The notes: generated by a model from the sequence alone, not told the origin. DNA of 14,422 nucleotides from a virus (IMGVR_UViG_2681813315_000020); one strand, 5' to 3'; counted from the first letter of the stretch, positions 613 through 14,422 are shown. Made by a program: numbers and translations.

Positions 613-906
613 TTACCGCCGCAACCGCTCCGGCTTCTTCCAGTGGTAAGTAATTTTTTCTTTCTCCTGGTACATCTCCACGCGGCGACGATATGACAAC
701 AACTCCAGAACTCTGGTGCGTATATTGCGTATATCCACGCCGTTAAGCTCGATACCGTCACGGCGCATCACCTCAGCCACCACACGCGCGTAATTTTCGG
801 CTATCACGCTGTCCGGCTGCGTGGCCTCCTGTTTGCCTGCTTCCTGGCTGATTCCGGTAACGCGGCGGATTATTTTTAGTAGTTCGGTTTCGCTCATTCT
901 CGTCAT
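613..906 (-). CDS. Hypothetical 97-aa protein, translationally coupled to terL (ATGA stop/start overlap)
   Basis: ORF MTRMSETELLKIIRRV...; its ATG (906-904) overlaps the terL TGA (905-903). No family recognised by eye. Confidence 0.5.
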   Translation of the reverse strand: MTRMSETELLKIIRRVTGISQEAGKQEATQPDSVIAENYARVVAEVMRRDGIELNGVDIRNIRTRVLELLSYRRRVEMYQEKEKITYHWKKPERLRR

Positions 907-2564
907 ACCCCATCAAACGCCGCAAGCCGCTCTTTGTGGCTGTCGCTCATATCGAATGCAAAATCCTCGTGCTCTGCCTGGAATGTGCCAAACGCCATCA
1001 GCGCCGCAACGCTCGGGTCTATCTTGTTGGATGATTTTTTCTTGTTCGGCTTGATATTGGCGTTCGCGTCACTCTGCATCACAACATTACTCATTGACCA
1101 GGCCAGCACCGGATCGCCACGATGCACAATCACCTTCCGGTTAACAAAAACTTCGAACGATTTCGCCGCCGGACTGAAACGAAGGTATGTTTGCGGGAAC
1201 GGCTCCACCTCAAATCCTGCCCCCTGTAGCTGCGTCCTCAGGTGCGTGGCGTTCCATGTATCGAAGCCCACCAGCCTGATATTGAAATTCTCTGCATCCG
1301 CCATGATGTCATCACGGATACGGTCATAATCAATGCAGTCACCCGGTGTTGTGCGTATCCAGCCCGCCTTTACCCACTGGCGATAGATGGCGCGGTTTTT
1401 ATTGGCGGGGTTCTGTAGCTGAAATTCCGGCAGATAGTGACGGGAAACCAGCATAATCTTTTTACCGACCGGAAAGGCATAGCACACGCTGGAAATATCG
1501 CTGGTTGATGATAAGTCCAGCCCCGCGTAGCACTCCTGACCGTATAAATCCGCCTCCGCGAACGTTCCGGCGCACTCCGCCCATGCACCGTTACCCATCC
1601 ACGGCGTAGCCCCCTGACACCAGATATTGAATCGCTTGGTGAGCATTTCCACCTACTGCGACGGAATACCCCGCGCTTTCTGGATGGTTGAGGCCAGTTT
1701 TTCACGATCGACGGAAACATCGATATTGGGATTCGCCTTTATCCACATCGCCGGATCGTCAACCTCGCTTTCATCATCCAGCTCGTAAATCAGCACGAAC
1801 ATGGATTCGTTCACCTCTTCACCATCCAGTATCTGGCAGCAATAGTCATAGTGTTGTTTACAGGCTGAAACAACGTTGCTCCCCGATGTGGTGATGGCAA
1901 ATAACAGCCCCTCCGGACGCGCCCCCATTCCCAGTTCAAGCGCGGAATAAACCCCGTTGTCAGGGTGCAGGTGATATTCATCCACAATGGCAAGACTCGG
2001 GTTTGTACCTTCAATGGTTGCCGCTTTTGCTGCCAGTGGCTTTAACAGGCTGTTGGTTTTCGGGTGTATCACCTTGTGTGCCTGAATATTTACCCGCTTT
2101 CGTAACGGTCGGGATAAAAGGCACATCTGACGCGCATCATCAAACACGATCCGCGCCTGATCACGACTCACGGCGGCGGTGTAAATATCCTGCTGCCCGT
2201 TTTCCATAACCAGAAACCAGTTAGCCAGGATAGCGGCGACCGTGGATTTGGCATTTTTTCGCGGCACTTCAATGAATGCGCTGGTGTATTTGCGCCGTCC
2301 GGTGGCCTTAACCTTAAAGCCCAGGATGCACGCAAAGGCGAACTGCTGCCACGGCTCCAGCTCAATGGGGCTACCGCGCATTGCGCCTTTTACGTGCGGA
2401 CACACCCTGGAAAAGGCAATAAACCGCTCCACGACCTCCGGATCGAACGTGTAAAGGGGGTTTTCAAGGTCAGAAAAATACCGTTTAACGGCCTGTTTCA
2501 GTCGTTTACAGGCCGTAATTTTGCCGTTTTTTACGCCTTCTGCGTACTCATGCCAGGCGGTCAA
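903..2564 (-). pseudogene. terL: Terminase large subunit (HK97-like TerL) interrupted by an in-frame TAG at 1653-1655; N-terminal ATPase fragment 1656-2564, C-terminal nuclease fragment 903-1652
   Basis: ORFs 1653..2564 and 903..1652 are contiguous and in the same frame (...KARGIPSQ-TAG-VEMLTKRFNIW...). The N-terminal part carries a P-loop-like motif (VPRKNAKST) and TerL-like N-terminus; the C-terminal part resembles the terminase nuclease domain. Combined about 553 aa, typical TerL size. Apparent TTG start at 2564 preceded by AGAGGA; overlaps the terS 3' end. Confidence 0.75.
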
Positions 2565-7172: not shown

Positions 7173-7421
7173 TTATTGTTTCACTGGCTCCCGCATTCTG
7201 CGTCTTATTTTCCACAAATATTCGATCATCGCTTCCACCTGCTCACGGTTGGTTGCGAAAATTTCCCCGGTCAGTGAGCTACGCAGAAAATCATGATGAT
7301 CCACAAAAAATAACGCATCGGAAGAAAGCAACCGACGATATTTTTTTGCTGTCGTGGTTTCCAGATCATCAAAACCATGAAGCTTTTTATGTTGCTGAAC
7401 TTCTTCAAATGTCACTGGCAT
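7173..7421 (-). CDS. Hypothetical 82-aa protein
   Basis: ORF with strong SD (AAGGGGGA) before ATG 7421; start overlaps the 3' end of the FinO/ProQ-like gene; followed by the terminator. No family recognised. Confidence 0.5.
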   Translation of the reverse strand: MPVTFEEVQQHKKLHGFDDLETTTAKKYRRLLSSDALFFVDHHDFLRSSLTGEIFATNREQVEAMIEYLWKIRRRMREPVKQ

Positions 7422-7942
7422 GTATCCCCCTTTGCTGCCCGGCGCTGGCGCTTGTGCTTCTCATTCAGCACCATCAGCCGTGTTTCTGCCTCCTGCTGTT
7501 CCTGTGGTGTCACTTCCCCACATGGCTGGCCTTTCAGATCGTAACGTGCGCCACCAGCTATCAGGGCGCGGTAATAGCGCGGAGACTGCGCATAGGATGC
7601 CAGCGTCGCACGTAATACCCCCGGCCCGAATGCCAGCCCCCTGACGGCGATATCCTGCATCAGGTCGTCGAATATCCCCACCTTAAGCGGCTTCGGTGCT
7701 TTATGGCTGAATAAGTCAGGCCACATCTCAGTGAGGCGGTTAACGCGTCGGCGGTTTTTGCGCTGCCTTTTGGTCATATGCTGCCACGGTGTCGCCCCTG
7801 TGGGCTTCTGCTGTGCGTTCTGATTGCCGGGTATCACTTTATGCGCCGATGTGGTTTTATCCTGCTCTTGCGCCGCCTGCGTCGTTTTCTGCGGCGTGCC
7901 GTAAATGCCTTTCGGCTTCCGGTTAATGGTCAGCGTTGTCAT
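7412..7942 (-). CDS. FinO/ProQ-family RNA-binding (RNA chaperone-like) protein
   Basis: 176 aa; region WPDLFSHKAPKPLKVGIFDDLMQDIAVRGLAFGPGVLRATLASYAQSPRYYRALIAGGARYDLKGQPCGEVTPQEQQEAE matches the conserved ProQ/FinO N-terminal domain pattern (PLKIGIFQDL...LR.AL..YT.S.RY...G..R.DL.G.P.GE). SD GGGGAAGG before ATG 7942. Confidence 0.65.
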   Translation of the reverse strand: MTTLTINRKPKGIYGTPQKTTQAAQEQDKTTSAHKVIPGNQNAQQKPTGATPWQHMTKRQRKNRRRVNRLTEMWPDLFSHKAPKPLKVGIFDDLMQDIAVRGLAFGPGVLRATLASYAQSPRYYRALIAGGARYDLKGQPCGEVTPQEQQEAETRLMVLNEKHKRQRRAAKGDTCQ

Positions 7943-8691: not shown

Positions 8692-8920
8692 CTTCACCTG
8701 TTCACCTTTTGAGATTTTCCCTTTTTATTCATAATGTTAAGGGGTGAACAGTTTCACAAAAACTATTCACCAACTGTTCACCACTGTTCACCCTTAAAGC
8801 TCAATAAATAATCAAAAAGGTGAACAGTGAATAGTTTGGTGAACAGTTCACAAATAACTGTTCACCCTATAATGTACTGATATAAAAGATATTTATAACA
8901 GGGTGAACAGTGGTGAACAG
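8692..8920. repeat. Iteron array (about 12 copies of GGTGAACAG / CTGTTCACC in both orientations) with adjacent AT-rich tract 8663-8690; candidate replication origin
   Basis: Read directly: cttcaccTGTTCACC, GGGTGAACAG, tattcaccaaCTGTTCACCaCTGTTCACCc, aGGTGAACAGtgaatag...GGTGAACAGttcac...CTGTTCACCc, GGGTGAACAGtGGTGAACAG. Lies immediately 3' of the primase/helicase gene, the usual place for satellite and plasmid origins. Confidence 0.75.
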
Positions 8921-8933
8921 TTATTCCATAAGT

Positions 8934-10748
8934 TTAATTTTTGCTGTCGTCATTTGTGACCGATGCACATGATGGCATCCAGTCTTCTGAATCCTCTGTC
9001 AGTGTCACATTTGAACGCAAACCGTGCTTCGTTTTCCGTTTTATATACTCCCTGCCATATTCCGCCATTGCCCCCGGCATATCTTTACCGAAGCGCGTCA
9101 GTGTTACAGGTTTACCGAATCCGTGTGCCCTCATATATGCCAGATAGGCGTGATAAAGATACCTGCGCGGACTGAACGGAATAATTTCGGCATTACCCAC
9201 TAACAGACCATCACACATTACCGACGACATGAGATAGCCACAGAAGTCCACCAGCGAATCGCCCTCGCGTTTTATCACCAGAGCTTCTTCTGATTTCTGC
9301 TGCTCATACAGCAGGCGTTTAGCTTCGTCCTGGTCAGAAAAACGAGTAAGCAGATGGCGAATCACAACCGCCAGCTCTCCTTCTATTTTTTCTGCCAGCA
9401 TGGGGTCGCGCTCGTTCTCCGGTACAACCTCCGAAAAATTGAATATCACCCGACGACGTGAGATCCCCCCGCTGCGGTCACTGAATGACATGGCGTTATT
9501 GTTCACCGCCAGCACGACCGCCTGAATGCGTGTTGAGTAGGGGGCTTTATGCTTCGGGTCGATTGCCACCTTGTCACCGCCTGTAATAGCCTTAATTCCT
9601 GCGCCATCACCAGCGTAGCGGGTCATATCCGGCATGATAATCAGCGAAAAGCCAACCACTAACGCGCGTTCCCTTGCATCTTCCAGCGCCTTCATGCTTG
9701 CCGATACTGTGTTGGCCTTACCCGCCAGCATGGTGCAAATCTCCGCCATCACGCTTTTACCACTTCCCCCTGGACCTGTTACCTCAATGAATAACTGCCA
9801 GTCGTACCGGTTCGCCAGCACCATGAATAATGCAGCCAGCACGCGATCCGTCTTGCGGTCATTCTCTGCCACCGAGCAGCGTAACCACTTCCAGAAATTC
9901 GGCGCATGTGTTGCCAGCGTTTCCCCCTCTGCTGGTGGGCTGAAAGGTAATTCACTGGCAATTAACAACCAGTCGTTTTTGTTATGCTCCCGAAAATTAC
10001 CTGTTCTGGTATCAAATACCCCGTTACTGAATCCAATCAGGTTACGGGCTGTATTCCCCATTACAGGCAAACTTAACTTCATGGTATCGACCGCCGATTT
10101 AATGGCGTTCTGCGAATAGCTGATCTCCGCATCAATGAAAATCTGCGCCATAGCACGCTGTAACTCTTTATCCTGAATCGGCTCCCATACAACGCCGTTG
10201 TAATGGTGAACAGTGTCAGAGTCGGCATGAATCGCCAGTTCACCGCCATAATGTGCCAGGAGAACTTCGCCGCGCTGGCTTGCTCCCATCTGGTTAAGCG
10301 CCAGTGGTGCGGCGCTGTCTTCTGTTTTTTTCTTAACAGGAAGCTGAATCACCAGACCATCAGAAAGATTCTGGCGCTCACGGGCCAGATATTCGCGCCA
10401 GTTCTGCACCTCCTGGCCGTGCATACCCTCAGGATAAAAATTTGCATCCTGTACGCCTGCCGCCGCCAGCTTCTGACCAATCGCCTTTATCATTACTGGC
10501 GCAAGATATCCGGCCCTGAATATGCGCACGGATTTTCTGCCTTCCGGCACAATTTGCAGCTTATCCAGTTCGGATAACTGCTGCTCCCCAAGCCACACAG
10601 GAGGCTCATTATCTCCGGCCATACGCGCGTCATGTTCCTGCCATTGTTTTGCGTGTGACCAGGCATCACTACCCGCAAAAATAATGACTTCTGTTTCTTT
10701 GTGTTTTATGCCGCGTGACTGCTGTTTTACGTTCGGTGCCAGTTTCAT
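8934..10748 (-). CDS. Replication initiator: primase/helicase-type protein with D5_N-like region and P-loop NTPase domain
   Basis: 604 aa; Walker A FIEVTGPGGSGKSVMAE; upstream region resembles the D5 N-terminal-like domain found with phage/plasmid primase C-terminal NTPases. Stop codon abuts the iteron array. Confidence 0.8.
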   Translation of the reverse strand: MKLAPNVKQQSRGIKHKETEVIIFAGSDAWSHAKQWQEHDARMAGDNEPPVWLGEQQLSELDKLQIVPEGRKSVRIFRAGYLAPVMIKAIGQKLAAAGVQDANFYPEGMHGQEVQNWREYLARERQNLSDGLVIQLPVKKKTEDSAAPLALNQMGASQRGEVLLAHYGGELAIHADSDTVHHYNGVVWEPIQDKELQRAMAQIFIDAEISYSQNAIKSAVDTMKLSLPVMGNTARNLIGFSNGVFDTRTGNFREHNKNDWLLIASELPFSPPAEGETLATHAPNFWKWLRCSVAENDRKTDRVLAALFMVLANRYDWQLFIEVTGPGGSGKSVMAEICTMLAGKANTVSASMKALEDARERALVVGFSLIIMPDMTRYAGDGAGIKAITGGDKVAIDPKHKAPYSTRIQAVVLAVNNNAMSFSDRSGGISRRRVIFNFSEVVPENERDPMLAEKIEGELAVVIRHLLTRFSDQDEAKRLLYEQQKSEEALVIKREGDSLVDFCGYLMSSVMCDGLLVGNAEIIPFSPRRYLYHAYLAYMRAHGFGKPVTLTRFGKDMPGAMAEYGREYIKRKTKHGLRSNVTLTEDSEDWMPSCASVTNDDSKN

Positions 10749-11032
10749 TTTTTACCCCCTGCGACCAGCATTTCACGAATTTTGCGGATATGACTTGCTG
10801 CACGTTTCTGATTTACGGCTTTACGATGGCCCACCAGCGTGAAATCACGCCGGAACTGATAAACAGGCATCACGCAGTCATATTCGTAGCCATCACGGCG
10901 GTAAGTGATGCGCCGTTCTGCCACGCCTTTTATCGTTACCGTGCCGCCATAGTTATCCCGGAAAATATCGCCGGGGCGGATTTCAGGCCGAGCGGGGCCG
11001 CTGGCAGTAAAGCCAGAAATTTTCTGTTTCAT
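10745..11032 (-). CDS. Hypothetical 95-aa protein, translationally coupled to the primase gene
   Basis: ORF whose stop overlaps the primase ATG (ATGA); 5 nt after the stop of the upstream gene. Confidence 0.5.
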   Translation of the reverse strand: MKQKISGFTASGPARPEIRPGDIFRDNYGGTVTIKGVAERRITYRRDGYEYDCVMPVYQFRRDFTLVGHRKAVNQKRAASHIRKIREMLVAGGKK

Positions 11033-11037
11033 GGTTT

Positions 11038-11265
11038 TTATTCCGCGTTTATTTTTTTATCGTGAATTTCGATCGCTTTATTTAATTCGACGATTACCGT
11101 ATCGAGTAATGAAATAAACGCACCAGCAAGATTAGACTCACGCTCATCTTCCGGCGCATCACTTAAACCATCAAGCCAGATAAGAAATATTTGCCTCAAA
11201 CATTCACTGTTAGTCAGTGCGTTTTCTGCATGGCTCATTGATTTAAGATAACGGTCATCATGCAT
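11038..11265 (-). CDS. Hypothetical about 75-aa protein
   Basis: ATG at 11265 preceded by GGGGG (MHDDRYLKSMSHAENALT...); overlaps the stop of the upstream gene (ATGATGA context). The track ORF extends to 11310 but that start lacks an SD. Confidence 0.4.
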   Translation of the reverse strand: MHDDRYLKSMSHAENALTNSECLRQIFLIWLDGLSDAPEDERESNLAGAFISLLDTVIVELNKAIEIHDKKINAE

Positions 11266-11494
11266 GGTGCACCCCCTGAATATCTGCGGTAAGAATTTTG
11301 CCTGCCTCATTCAGCGCCATATCAGCACTAAATTGCATAAGAGCCAGTGAGTGAGGAACGAAAGCCCCGGCATATTCTGTTTCGCTGGTGGCGTGCTTAT
11401 GCGCCTTGTCTGCGATAACAGAAATATCAATCAGCGCGTGCATCAGCGTTTTGATGGCTTCGGCGGCTGCGTCCGGTGTGGTTTTATTGTGCAT
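11258..11494 (-). CDS. Hypothetical 78-aa protein
   Basis: ATG at 11494 preceded by strong SD AGGGGGAAA; overlaps the 3' end of the upstream gene. Confidence 0.5.
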   Translation of the reverse strand: MHNKTTPDAAAEAIKTLMHALIDISVIADKAHKHATSETEYAGAFVPHSLALMQFSADMALNEAGKILTADIQGVHHA

Positions 11495-11774
11495 AGGTTT
11501 CCCCCTGGCGAATACGGGCAGCGAATACCATCACGCAGCCATCAGGAGATTGCTGACGCGCTTCCTGTTCGCTGGTGGCCTCAATGGTAATCACGCGCGG
11601 TTGTGCCGTGCTCAGGGCAATAAAACGCCAGATGTATTTATTCAGGTTGTACGAGTCCCGCCCTTGCGGGTGTCTGGTATAATTTCTCATAGCTGCCTCG
11701 ATACGCTTTCTATCGTTGGTGGTTAGACGCCCTGCATGTGTGCCACCACTGCGGGGCGTTGTTGTTTGGTGCAT
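11484..11774 (-). CDS. Hypothetical about 96-aa protein, first gene of the replication operon; weak, unverified resemblance to Icd-like small proteins
   Basis: First ATG is at 11774 (MHQTTTPRSGG...YIWRFIALSTAQPRVITIEATSEQEARQQ...VMVFAARI); the longer track ORF would need a TTG start at 11861 inside the divergent promoter. Family guess is from memory only. Confidence 0.35.
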   Translation of the reverse strand: MHQTTTPRSGGTHAGRLTTNDRKRIEAAMRNYTRHPQGRDSYNLNKYIWRFIALSTAQPRVITIEATSEQEARQQSPDGCVMVFAARIRQGETYAQ

Positions 11775-11859
11775 CGCACCATTCGGTTTTAACCTATCAA
11801 TAAGTGAATCGCACCTCAAGCCTTTCTCTGAAATTTTTTTGTGTATACTGAATCGCACC
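11771..11859. promoter_or_regulatory. Divergent promoter/operator region with three ATCGCACC direct repeats
   Basis: gcATCGCACC (11771-11780), gaATCGCACC (11806-11815), gaATCGCACC (11850-11859). A good -10-like TATACT at 11844-11849 lies just before the third copy, upstream of the plus-strand RHH gene (SD AGAGAGGA, ATG 11880). Confidence 0.4.
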
Positions 11860-11879
11860 AACTTAGAGAGGATTCAGTA

Positions 11880-12059
11880 ATGGCAACAGGTTCAACAAAT
11901 AATAAGTCGCAACAGTTAAATGCCAGATTCCCGCATGATGTTGTTGCAGACTTAGAAAAAAATTTAGATGAAGGTGAAAGCAAGGCGCAATTTATAGTTA
12001 CTGCCGTTAAAGGTGAGATCAAACGCCGCCAGCGCCGCAAGGCCAAAGAGCAGGAGTAA
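11880..12059 (+). CDS. Small ribbon-helix-helix (Arc/MetJ-like) DNA-binding protein, candidate regulator
   Basis: 59 aa from ATG 11880: MATGSTNNKSQQLNARFPHDVVADLEKNLDEGESKAQFIVTAVKGEIKRRQRRKAKEQE; pattern of a short beta-strand (LNARFP) followed by two helices and a basic tail resembles the Arc repressor (FNLRWPREVLDLVRKVAEENGRSVNSEIYQRV). Confidence 0.5.
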   Translation: MATGSTNNKSQQLNARFPHDVVADLEKNLDEGESKAQFIVTAVKGEIKRRQRRKAKEQE

Positions 12060-12101
12060 CCATCACCAGCGCCGTGGTGTAAGGTATTACGGCGCATTGC
12101 T

Positions 12102-12290
12102 ATGCAGGACAACACAATGACCGATAAAGAATTGACCAAAACATTATCACCGACACGGAAAAGACGACGCAGAAAGATAGAGCATGAATCAGAAAGATTC
12201 GCGCCATGTGCTTTTGCCCTTGAGCAATTCCTTAAAGAGTACAGGGAAAAGCGCTCATTGCAGGTATGGCAACGAACTGAACCAGACTGA
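12102..12290 (+). CDS. Hypothetical small basic protein (start may be ATG 12117)
   Basis: ORF MQDNTMTDKELTKTLSPTRKRRRRKIEHESERF...; AGGA lies 9 nt before the second ATG; followed by an intrinsic terminator at 12357-12388. Confidence 0.35.
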   Translation: MQDNTMTDKELTKTLSPTRKRRRRKIEHESERFAPCAFALEQFLKEYREKRSLQVWQRTEPD

Positions 12291-12356
12291 TTGCATTGCC
12301 CACCAGCCGCAAATGTGGCATTGTTGGTGATGCTTTTGTTTTCCCTTGTTCTCACT

Positions 12357-12388
12357 GGCGACCCTTTTGCGGTCGCCTTTGTTTTGCC
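12357..12388 (+). terminator. Rho-independent terminator
   Basis: GGCGACC-cttttgc-GGTCGCC followed by TTTGTTTTG. Confidence 0.7.
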
Positions 12389-12481
12389 TGTTATCCGGCA
12401 ATTGTGGCGCTTCGCCACACGGTTGATATAATTCCCCTGCACTGATCCATTTTTTTCGCAGCAGGTTAATTGTTCAGAAAG

Positions 12482-12510
12482 GCGGTTCCTTATCGGGGCC
12501 GCTTTTTTTA
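12482..12510 (+). terminator. Second candidate rho-independent terminator
   Basis: GCGGTTCC-ttatc-GGGGCCGC (two G-U wobbles) followed by TTTTTTTA. Confidence 0.45.
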
Positions 12511-12622
12511 TGCCTGAAAATACCCGATAACATGGCTTTTTAGTTTCACCAGGACGAACGAAGCCCCGCCCCTGTTCGGGCGTATATCCAGTATTCATGG
12601 TTAGATCTCTGTGTTAGTGGAT

Positions 12623-12647
12623 GGCTGGCGGCGGTGCGCCGCCAGCC
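12623..12647. other. Perfect GC-rich hairpin 3 nt past the alpA stop (no U-tract)
   Basis: GGCTGGCGGCG-gtg-CGCCGCCAGCC, 11-bp stem. Confidence 0.5.
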
Positions 12648-12650
12648 TGA

Positions 12651-12854
12651 TTAGTGAACTGCCTCGCGGCTGTCCTTCCATGCCAGAACTTCGGATAAAG
12701 ACCAGCCAACGGAACGACCGCCGAGTTTACGCCGTGATGGGAATTGTCCAGTCTTCTCCAGGCGATACCGACATGAGCGGCTCAGGCCTGTAAGTTGCTG
12801 ACATTCTTTTTCACGTATAAAGCGATCAGCGCTTAACACTATTGCCTCCGTCAT
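12651..12854 (-). CDS. alpA: AlpA-family transcriptional regulator / excisionase-like winged-helix protein
   Basis: 67 aa (or 62 aa from GTG 12839, preceded by GGAGG): ...DRFIREKECQQLTGLSRSCRYRLEKTGQFPSRRKLGGRSVGWSLSEVLAWKDSR, matching the AlpA signature (R.....TGLSRSTIYRL...G.FP...KLG.R.V.W...EV..W). Downstream of and co-oriented with int as in CP4-57 (intA...alpA). Confidence 0.8.
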   Translation of the reverse strand: MTEAIVLSADRFIREKECQQLTGLSRSCRYRLEKTGQFPSRRKLGGRSVGWSLSEVLAWKDSREAVH

Positions 12855-13192: not shown

Positions 13193-14422
13193 TTATATTT
13201 CTCTGGCTATTGGCAGTGTGGTTACGTTTTCGTGAGTACCCGCCAGTATCTCTAACCGCTCTGTCCACATGTCCAGCGCATTACGTTTCGCATCGAGATA
13301 ACGGGAGTGGTTATAGACTCGCTGCATCCCTGGCATCTGGTGAGCGGTGAGTTGTTCGACAATATGCGGATCCACGCCTAAATCGTTCAGCATCGTGGTA
13401 AACGTGCGCCGTATATCGTGTAGTGACCAGTGCGGATGGTTTAATTTTTTGTGCGTGAATCTGCCGTATTGCGACACGCTGGCTTCCTGTTTCAGTTCCC
13501 CGAGTAATAGTCCTGTGTGTCGGTTCTGCTCCACCAGCCGTGTGACGAACGGTAAAATGCTTTCCGGTATTGGCCTGAATATGGCGACCTTCGTTTTGCT
13601 GTGCTCCTTCGGTACTGTCCAGAGCATTTCCTTAAAATCCCACTCCCTGATCTCCGACAGCCTCAGTTCTCCGGTTCGGCAACCAAACACAATCAGGAGG
13701 CGGATTAGTGCGCTGTAGTAGGGCGGGAATATTTTTTTATCCAGCGCCTGTAATAATTCGCCCAGTTCTTTGTTACTAAGCACGCGTTCGCTTATGCCCG
13801 GCTTTTTGCCAACGTCCACCACGTTGAGATCATCCAGAACGTTACTGACTGCGTAGCGACGTTTACGGCAGAACTTAAGCGCCTGTTTACACGCCTGCAT
13901 CATGTGACCAGACGTTACGGGGGATTTTTTGCGTATCCGGTCAAAACAGGCCAGCCAGTGACGTAATTCGCATTTATCCAGTGGCATGTTACCGATGTGC
14001 TGTATGACGTGATTATTCAGGCGACTTTTCAGGCATACATAATCGACACGGTTTTCCTTTACGTGCGTTTCCAGCCAGTAACTGATCGCATCGCCAACCG
14101 TTACGGGTTTTAACGCTTCCTGCACAGTGTAGTTCAGTTCATGACGTGGGTTTTTCCCTTCTGCCAGCCATGCACGACACTTTGCGGCTTTTTCCCTGGC
14201 TGCTTTAAGGCTCAGATCGGGATAGTTTCCCAGCTTCAGGCGTTCCGGTGTGGTATCCCTTCCCGTTCCAGCCCTGTAGGTGAAGTACCAGGTCAATTTA
14301 CCTGATGTTAAATATTTCACGCTCAGATTACCGCCATCGCTATAGAACGTATTTTTCTCCGCTGGCTTACCATAAAGTTTTCTTAACAATGTATCGCTCA
14401 GTTTGTTAAGCGCTCTGCTCAC
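13193..14422 (-). CDS. int: Tyrosine integrase, P4/CP4-57 type, with N-terminal arm-binding (DUF4102-like) domain; 5' end at or just beyond the window edge
   Basis: 409 aa reaching the window edge, where the first codon is GTG. N-terminus LSDTLLRKLYGKPAEKNTFYSDGGNLSVKYLTSGKLTWYFTYR resembles the P4-type integrase N-terminal domain; C-terminal catalytic region has HDIRRT and VYNHSRY (tyrosine recombinase His-x-x-Arg and Tyr motifs). Confidence 0.9.
   Translation of the reverse strand: MSRALNKLSDTLLRKLYGKPAEKNTFYSDGGNLSVKYLTSGKLTWYFTYRAGTGRDTTPERLKLGNYPDLSLKAAREKAAKCRAWLAEGKNPRHELNYTVQEALKPVTVGDAISYWLETHVKENRVDYVCLKSRLNNHVIQHIGNMPLDKCELRHWLACFDRIRKKSPVTSGHMMQACKQALKFCRKRRYAVSNVLDDLNVVDVGKKPGISERVLSNKELGELLQALDKKIFPPYYSALIRLLIVFGCRTGELRLSEIREWDFKEMLWTVPKEHSKTKVAIFRPIPESILPFVTRLVEQNRHTGLLLGELKQEASVSQYGRFTHKKLNHPHWSLHDIRRTFTTMLNDLGVDPHIVEQLTAHQMPGMQRVYNHSRYLDAKRNALDMWTERLEILAGTHENVTTLPIAREI

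Follow-up and report, generated by a model that had tools for sequence, protein, structure and literature searches.

What do four very short genes do at the head of a satellite's replication operon? The question is raised by IMGVR_UViG_2681813315_000020, a viral DNA stretch of 14,422 nt analysed here at its full length (hereafter the window), in which four co-oriented open reading frames (ORFs), here called orfA to orfD, occupy positions 10745-11774 of the minus strand directly upstream of a primase gene. An earlier note, made from the sequence alone, had described these four ORFs as overlapping or near-abutting leaders of the replication operon, all of uncharacterised function. Their presence, arrangement and leading position were confirmed. 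The window is an Escherichia coli satellite of the capsid-forming phage-inducible chromosomal island (PICI) type, and the reading that we favour, with somewhat better than even confidence, is that the four ORFs form its early regulatory and host-takeover cassette, the counterpart of the left operon of P4. Sequence and family-profile searches placed orfA in the Icd/Kil family and orfD in the DUF4222/RgdR family, and the description as uncharacterised now applies to orfB and orfC, for which no family with a known function was found.

The bounds given earlier for orfB, orfC and orfD were retained, and that of the first ORF, 96 aa from ATG 11774, proved over-extended. This ATG has no Shine-Dalgarno (SD) sequence and lies within a palindromic operator-like repeat (GGTGCGATGCACC). 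The 84 nt preceding ATG 11690 are kept as nucleotides in relatives, where 2-nt and 1-nt indels put them into different reading frames; ATG 11690 has a good SD (GAGG, 5-nt spacer), and the Prokaryotic Genome Annotation Pipeline (PGAP) calls a 65-68 aa form of orfA in every relative inspected. The 96-aa reading was therefore rejected, and the true orfA is most likely the 68-aa frame listed in Table 1. With this start, the claim that each ORF has its own SD stands for orfA, orfB and orfC, and is weak for orfD. The start of orfB overlaps the end of orfA by 11 nt, orfB and orfC overlap by 8 nt (ATGCATGA), a gap of 5 nt separates orfC from orfD, and the orfD stop codon and the primase start codon share an ATGA. 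A simple scan of the coding strand found no consensus promoter or terminator inside the array. Judged by these junctions, the four ORFs are translationally coupled.

Chance reading frames in a long leader would account for ORFs this short, two of which have no family outside PHROGs. We compared the array with about 90-100 related loci from E. coli genomes and IMG/VR, using local profile searches and a single-query tblastn scan for gene order. Homologues of all four families were found at the protein level, the order was fixed (A, B, (C), D, replicase), and the junctions combining an SD with an overlap were conserved. Pairwise Nei-Gojobori estimates between relatives and the window gave median ratios of non-synonymous to synonymous substitution (dN/dS) of 0.32 for orfA, 0.34 for orfB, 0.30 for orfC and 0.30 for orfD, with synonymous sites saturated or nearly so (dS at least 1.5 or not computable) in most diverged pairs. 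Protein conservation nevertheless held down to 30-40% identity, as between orfC and its relatives in O157/O103-type islands, and structure prediction gave high confidence for the core of orfD and moderate confidence for orfB. The conservation data already refute the chance-frame reading: the four ORFs are real genes. With megablast, part or all of the region was found in 1786 of 5426 complete E. coli genomes, and at a coverage of at least 80% in only 25. The earlier note had named two outcomes that would speak against it, a lack of conservation in related elements and homology to routine replication accessory proteins; the ORFs are kept in such elements, and they are not such proteins.

By its sequence, orfA is an Icd/Kil family member in the same position as in P4. 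It matched NCBIfam NF033153 phage_ICD_like ('host cell division inhibitor Icd-like') with a score of 69.6 bits (cut-off 25, E 1.7e-19) over all 48 model positions, as well as phrog_1743 and phrog_6196. When the P4 left operon was translated, the last 65 residues of the obsolete 'cI ORF (aa 1-137)' gave a 65-aa polypeptide, taken to be the published Kil, which matched NF033153 (76.1 bits) and phrog_1743 and was 44-50% identical to the regions of N15 gp32 ('secondary immunity') and PY54 icd. These shared matches put orfA in a known family and at an equivalent position, as a small gene downstream of alpA and the first ORF after the promoter region. PMC10111431, summarising Forti et al. (1999), describes P4 Kil as the first translated product of the left operon, which kills cells and whose translation prevents premature termination. 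A search of PDB sequences returned no relatives of orfA. The protein is hydrophilic and basic (GRAVY, the grand average of hydropathy, -0.75), not a hydrophobic membrane peptide as in type I toxins; a layout like that of a type I toxin-antitoxin pair is suggested at the level of sequence by a predicted antisense element with an extended -10, a hairpin and a T-rich tail over the orfA initiation region. Separately, we noticed that PHROG families 6196, 1743 and 6928 carry the label 'transcriptional repressor', and that their members are Kil/Icd-type proteins. The label most likely comes from the old P4 cI ORF annotation, which persists in P4 records.

Sequence comparison likewise assigns orfD to the DUF4222/RgdR family. 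It matched DUF4222 (PF13973) at 89.4 bits (threshold 27, E 1.1e-25) over profile positions 1-52 of 53, and was 61% identical over 92 residues (E 3e-40) to a DUF4222 protein of 99 aa encoded in the O157:H7 island that lies between pepT and roxA (L004:6901-7200), a protein that by size, RGD motif and island is RgdR/ECs1581 of OI-51. Flockhart et al. (2012; PMC3378721) found RgdR to be an activator of LEE1 and of type III secretion and a repressor of motility, with weak, non-specific binding to DNA. The same study reports that OI-51 contributes to colonisation, and its RgdR phenotypes, the only ones published, concern ECs1581, C1493 and ECED1_1787. All E. coli PICIs analysed by Fillol-Salom et al. 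(2018; PMC6092414) encode RgdR. The AlphaFold2 model of orfD is a five-stranded SH3/Tudor-like barrel followed by a basic helix, with a mean predicted local distance difference test score (pLDDT) of 77 and values above 90 in core residues 20-68. This predicted fold fits a small basic DNA- or polymerase-associated modulator and, since SH3/Tudor-like folds are common, is a lead and not a diagnosis. No sequence relatives of orfD were found in PDB, and among species representatives the close RgdR clade was seen only in E. albertii and Shigella flexneri. Two P4 candidates were tried and dropped. The N-terminal part of P4 ORF151 aligned to orfD at 28% identity over 50 aa with BLAST and at E 0.03 with hhalign, and ORF151 was not among the 50 BFVD fold matches listed. 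Neither orfC nor orfD shares a Pfam or PHROG family with Cnr or ORF151, and hhalign comparisons with Cnr and ORF151 gave E values of 0.03-0.36 from shallow alignments.

The two genes between them encode small, probably helical proteins restricted to satellites of the Escherichia/Shigella type. The matches of orfB (phrog_5146 and phrog_2512) and orfC (phrog_2196) are all to PHROGs without an assigned function; no Pfam, NCBIfam, PADLOC or PDB-sequence match was obtained for either, even with diverse family members and profiles, and their profiles gave chance-level matches only against PDB. The PADLOC defence library matched none of six small proteins scanned. In its AlphaFold2 model (pLDDT 79), orfB is a two-helix hairpin (helices 7-37 and 42-77), for which the BFVD fold search was uninformative, and a helical fold is suggested for orfC by its sequence character alone. 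Neither has an enzymatic or DNA-binding signature; orfB is mildly and orfC clearly acidic. An orfB profile run against 1.84 billion representative proteins retrieved only 42 clusters, and those inspected were mostly small proteins, a few of them fused to an Icd-like domain or to a second small domain. Named sources of the close homologues were E. coli and E. albertii, and in species-representative genomes none of 40 pattern matches encoded a relative of orfB.

Since P4 encodes the antirepressor epsilon right after kil, we asked whether orfB could be its homologue. The start of orfB overlaps the end of orfA as that of epsilon overlaps the end of kil, a position that does not by itself prove membership, and BLAST found a weak local motif common to both (VPHSLALMQFSADMALNEA in one and IPHIFSYLNEDIDFVLNEL in the other). 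P4 epsilon matches the Pfam Derepression family PF25738 at 9e-51; orfB and 14 diverse relatives gave no match to it at E up to 5, and the large profile search retrieved no epsilon-like protein. The epsilon profile used with hhalign was shallow, as its expansion in IMG/VR yielded almost only copies 97-99% identical to P4 epsilon. Across the Pfam scans of 15 members, the large profile search, the fold comparison and hhalign, homology of orfB to epsilon was not established, nor, with it, the one concrete form that a helper-directed role in the sense of the earlier note had been given.

Comparison of the related islands revealed a cassette with fixed ends and changing contents in between. The first Icd-like gene and the DUF4222 gene enclose 2 to 6 small genes, six being reached only in locus L005, which holds a second Icd-like gene at this place. 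The Kil-like gene is followed by orfB in most relatives, usually directly and with 1-2 small genes between them in L004 and L005. Where present, orfC stands directly before the RgdR-like gene (it is missing from L006), and orfD is always directly upstream of the replicase gene. A junction pattern recurs in which '...CA(C/T)GCA TGA/TAA' overlaps 'ATGCA...' (also written ...CAYGCNTGA/ATGCA...), and thus the end of each gene carries the SD and the start of the next. In the O157/O103 islands (L003:7423-7887, L004:7432-7896, L005:6423-7228), orfB forms an in-frame fusion with a second, 77-aa unit, which other islands encode as a gene of its own. These sequences suggest that recombination at shared junctions shuffles the small genes. 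The replicase behind the array is a D5-type primase in some relatives and a RepA helicase in others, and the array is thus not an accessory of one replicase type. Both the cassette (Kil, orfB, variable genes, orfC, RgdR, replicase) and its independence from the replicase type appear undescribed in the literature examined.

Control of the array appears to lie in the 189 nt between orfA and a divergent gene of the YlcI/YnfO family. A candidate sigma-70 promoter was assigned there from its sequence, and TTGA-N17-TAnnTT is kept at the same position in diverged relatives. Of three operator-like repeats (Table 1), one lies upstream of the -35 element, one in the spacer and one just downstream of the promoter. 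The repeat sequence differs between islands and shifts together with residues of the predicted N-terminal beta-strand of the YlcI-like protein, which by eye is ribbon-helix-helix-like. Such co-variation is expected if the YlcI-like protein is an operator-binding repressor, and makes it a candidate element-specific repressor; we found no description of this co-varying pair in the literature examined.

The leader between this promoter and orfA contains a GC-rich hairpin that is conserved as a structure. In 22 distinct variants, compensatory double changes affect 8 of the 13 pairs, and one variant class has a wholly different stem. Paired cells amounted to 83%, compared with 30-47% in slid controls, and none of 500 shuffles reached as high a value. 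Pairing is biased towards the plus strand (94% paired, 31 G.U pairs) over the minus strand (83%, no G.U pairs). On the plus strand a T-rich tail follows the hairpin in every variant, and an extended -10 (TGgTATAAT, 11675-11683) lies inside orfA codons 2-5, some 7 nt ahead of the complement of the ATG. TGnTAnnnT occupies exactly this position in 35 of 46 distinct variants, with TATGAT or TATGCT in the other 11, and the position is kept although the encoded N-terminal residues of orfA vary. The predicted 80-nt plus-strand RNA folds into two stem-loops (-34 kcal/mol, z -2.9). Every PICI-type locus searched with a covariance model (R1), among them Shigella flexneri and loci outside model building, has the element in antisense orientation to the Icd-like gene; the model found nothing in P4-type loci or in E. 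albertii. From these signals we propose a candidate cis-antisense RNA that would mask the ribosome-binding site of the Kil-type orfA; it likewise appears undescribed in the literature examined. No Rfam family matched the element, and neither C4 nor isrK was detected, whether in the window (E up to 1) or, with a looser limit (E up to 10), in 11600-12700; a leader RNA of the c4/CI/isrK type was rejected on this basis. An invariant 16-mer (CTAACCACCAACGATA) follows the hairpin; the window contains no complementary site for it elsewhere, and a trans target or partner was dropped.

Together, these features lead us to a model in which we infer every biochemical activity; the analysis itself shows that the genes are real, and gives their order, coupling and families, the predicted fold of orfD, and the covariation and strand bias of the RNA. 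While the island is quiescent, its YlcI-like protein and antisense RNA would hold the operon and its toxic first gene off, the former probably by binding the three element-specific operators overlapping the promoter, the latter probably by masking the orfA ribosome-binding site. Activation by a helper through AlpA (PMC6092414) would start transcription from the promoter near 11800, about 95 nt upstream of orfA. The orfA product would be translated first and, by homology, would block host cell division or be toxic when overproduced; as in P4, its translation would probably keep the long operon transcript from terminating early. Ribosomes would then pass by start/stop overlaps into orfB and orfC, go on into orfD and, via the ATGA, enter the replicase gene, yielding orfB, orfC, the RgdR-like protein and the replicase in fixed proportions. 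Most likely, orfB and orfC would act as protein-binding modulators of a host or helper factor, and the fold and published RgdR data suggest that orfD would bind DNA non-specifically, or act on DNA or RNA polymerase, and change transcription globally. A bolder proposal, which we hold to be less likely than not, is that the Kil/Icd-like gene, the antisense RNA and the YlcI-like repressor with its operators are the long-sought quiescence or immunity switch of Gram-negative PICIs, gating the whole replication operon and evolved apart from the c4/CI RNAs of P1 and P4, with orfB, orfC and their alternates as swappable helper- or host-directed effectors.

Several observations weigh against the cassette model. 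The operon and antisense promoters fall below or outside the threshold of a consensus scan, and the c4/CI-type RNA that gates icd or kil in P1 and P4 is missing here by Rfam. No homologue of known function is detectable for orfB or orfC; the likeness of orfB to epsilon is a 20-column motif (hhalign P 0.016, probability 2.8%), and P4 orf151 and cnr have no detectable relation to orfC or orfD, which leaves the P4 parallel positional for two of the four genes. The RGD tripeptide of RgdR (residues 20-22) is also absent, orfD having I-R-P-G-D for T-R-G-D, and RPGD occurs in most of its closest relatives. Residue 20 of RgdR matters for the activation of type III secretion, although activity was not abolished in an R20C variant. 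The array, orfD above all, could be a replication accessory serving copy-number control or acting as an architectural factor at the origin, like P4 Cnr: orfD is coupled to the replicase and always adjoins it, RgdR binds DNA non-specifically (PMC3378721), and P4 cnr occupies the same slot just upstream of alpha. The same array nevertheless precedes two unrelated replicases, which argues against a specific replicase partner. With no similarity to Cnr/DUF5375, and with published RgdR phenotypes in the transcription of chromosomal genes and not in replication, we regard this account as quite improbable.

Host-benefit cargo offers a different view, in which orfD, perhaps with its neighbours, regulates virulence or fitness and plays no part in the life cycle of the satellite. 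The effects of RgdR on LEE1, type III secretion and motility, and the aid given by OI-51 to colonisation (PMC3378721), agree with it, and RgdR has been listed among accessory virulence genes (PMC6092414). The gene is, however, also found in commensal strains and in strains negative for the locus of enterocyte effacement (PMC3378721), and in islands with different packaging modules; it sits in the early operon, coupled to the replicase, and not in the accessory hot spots at the island ends, and orfD has no RGD motif. A pure cargo role is unlikely. A helper-directed role for orfB, orfC or both, as antirepressors freeing a resident helper prophage (as P4 epsilon does on the P2 C repressor) or as interference factors, overlaps with our model but names a specific target. 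Epsilon in the slot after the Kil/Icd gene of P4, the weak shared motif and the small size of these acidic proteins without catalytic motifs all suit it, and the variable middle of the array would fit, without showing, adaptation to different targets. P1 and N15 encode antirepressors at the same slot after Icd. The lack of any Pfam or convincing profile match to epsilon counts against this account, with an uninformative BFVD fold search, as does the fact that Gram-negative PICIs reportedly answer an already induced helper through alpA without inducing it, and we consider it doubtful in this specific form. The early regulatory and host-takeover cassette remains our preferred reading of the array.

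The rest of the window bears out its assignment as a capsid-forming PICI. As a whole, the window matches E. coli chromosomal islands at 97-99% identity, for example in strain JP538 between smrA and abgR, and its main genes all lie on the minus strand. As in other capsid-forming PICIs, it has int and alpA, a replicase with an adjoining iteron-rich region as its likely origin, genes for capsid, protease, portal, HNH and terminase, no tail genes, and a size of about 15 kb. Alongside the primase gene there are an 81-aa ORF and genes for a protein that binds single-stranded DNA (SSB), a ProQ/FinO-family protein, an HK97 capsid, a protease, a portal, a head-tail connector, an HNH protein and the terminase. 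The role of AlpA in PICIs has been described (PMC6092414).

Table 1. Features of the array and of its surroundings in the window
Feature	Position	Strand	Details
orfA, Kil/Icd-like	11484-11690	minus	68 aa, pI (isoelectric point) 9.5; NF033153, PHROG matches, start-site comparison
orfB	11258-11494	minus	78 aa, pI 5.9; SD GGGGG 6 nt upstream
orfC	11038-11265	minus	75 aa, pI 4.6; SD GGGGG
orfD, RgdR family (DUF4222)	10745-11032	minus	95 aa, pI 10.5; SD weak (GGAA)
D5-type primase/helicase	8934-10748	minus	604 aa; Pfam D5_N, DUF5906, Pox_D5; directly downstream of the four ORFs
Candidate sigma-70 operon promoter	11791-11819	minus	-35 TTGAGG 11814-11819, 17-nt spacer, -10 TAGGTT 11791-11796
Three operator-like repeats, GGTGCGAT(T/G)CA	11849-11859, 11805-11815, 11768-11780		Last repeat is a palindrome
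GC-rich hairpin	11727-11759		13 pairs; between promoter and orfA
Candidate cis-antisense RNA	11690-11770	plus	About 80 nt; covers orfA SD and ATG; 3' end is the hairpin with a T-rich tail
YlcI/YnfO-family gene, divergent	11880-12059	plus	59 aa; NF041551, 1.5e-17
alpA, PICI activator family	12651-12854	minus	PF05930, 3.4e-18; upstream of the array, co-oriented
Integrase	13193-14422	minus	

Other features of the island were noted in passing. Just downstream of the primase gene, an AT-rich region (8713-8893, 32-34% GC) with many iteron-type GGTGAACAG copies in both orientations, which had surfaced as spurious microRNA-hairpin matches, is likely the replication origin. The large terminase frame (903-2564, minus strand) is divided between ORFs 1653-2564 and 903-1652, which abut. 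Its counterpart in the closest relative is a single intact gene of 1662 nt, and the split could be a frameshift, a pseudogene or a sequencing error. The ProQ/FinO-family gene (7412-7942, minus strand; PF04352, 1.2e-23), encoding an RNA chaperone-like protein, is missing from several related islands (e.g., L001-L004) and is a frameshifted pseudogene in that of E. coli ABU 83972 (L006). The alpA stop codon is immediately followed by a perfect inverted repeat of 11 bp (GGCTGGCGGCG / CGCCGCCAGCC, 12623-12647), at which transcription may end or pause between alpA and the operon downstream. No convincing minus-strand gene was seen in the approximately 590 nt between alpA and the ylcI-like gene (12060-12650), which carry two plus-strand terminator-like hairpins (12357-12387 and about 12480-12515) and a 62-aa plus-strand ORF (12102-12290). 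In relatives, PGAP annotates the counterpart of this region as a truncated 'hypothetical' or as an 'Icd-like' pseudogene without a C-terminus, which points to a P4 Eta-like ORF, reduced to a remnant and parted from its Kil-like end when the ylcI-like module inserted.

This type of island is known, and known families largely explain the array. About a third of complete E. coli genomes contain matches to the array, in part or whole, and it opens the replication operon in satellites that transport virulence and defence genes. The 'unknown' labels of two of the four genes are now corrected, to a Kil/Icd cell-division inhibitor and RgdR, and a misleading PHROG label is exposed. A known regulator family of type III secretion in enterohaemorrhagic E. 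coli is placed in the core early PICI operon and not among the cargo genes. Compact, conserved and confined to this kind of satellite, orfB and orfC lend themselves well to interaction screens. Should the antisense RNA and the system of YlcI-like protein and operators prove real, they would offer a testable explanation for the silence of Gram-negative PICIs.

How does the array compare with known systems? In PMC10111431, Gram-negative PICIs are divided into Integration, Bro, Replication and Late zones, and Eta/Kil is mentioned, as are C4/isrK-type RNAs in some islands. The array corresponds to the Bro zone in lying between Integration and Replication genes. It differs in that a Pfam scan found no Bro, KilA-N or ANT domain in it, and relatives annotate just the Eta-like N-terminal remnant, a pseudogene upstream of the ylcI-like gene; the section consulted mentions neither the small ORFs nor an antisense element. 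The P4 left operon reads orf88/vis, 'cI ORF' (its last 65 aa Kil, with kil nested in eta), epsilon, orf151, orf106 (cnr) and alpha. Both operons have an AlpA/Vis-type gene upstream, a first translated gene for a 65-68 aa Kil/Icd protein matching NF033153 and phrog_1743, and then a series of small ORFs that overlap and lead up to the primase gene. Unlike P4, the window has no CI/c4-type RNA by Rfam and no detectable homologues of epsilon, orf151 and cnr; it carries the YlcI-like gene and operators between alpA and the kil-like gene, its 604-aa replicase is swappable for RepA in relatives, and its antisense model finds no counterpart in P4-type loci.

With RgdR (ECs1581 of OI-51, or CP-933C), orfD shares DUF4222 at the identity given above, a place directly upstream of the island replicase and a basic character (pI about 10); it differs in RPGD for RGD and in its C-terminal third (HRKAVNQKRAASHIRKIREMLVAGGKK type). 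The islands differ as well, the window being a capsid-forming PICI with a primase and OI-51 having RepA and a capsid/decoration module. In P1 (c4-icd-ant) and in N15 and PY54 (CA RNA-icd-antABC), a small Icd-family ORF likewise comes first in the operon, and P4 Kil, through its identity to the N15 and PY54 regions, forms a bridge to them. There, Icd translation is gated by a small RNA complementary to the ribosome-binding site, and effector genes follow. These RNAs are encoded upstream on the same strand and act on repeated target sites, whereas the candidate RNA of the window would be a true cis-antisense RNA, placed ahead of downstream genes that are not of the Ant type.

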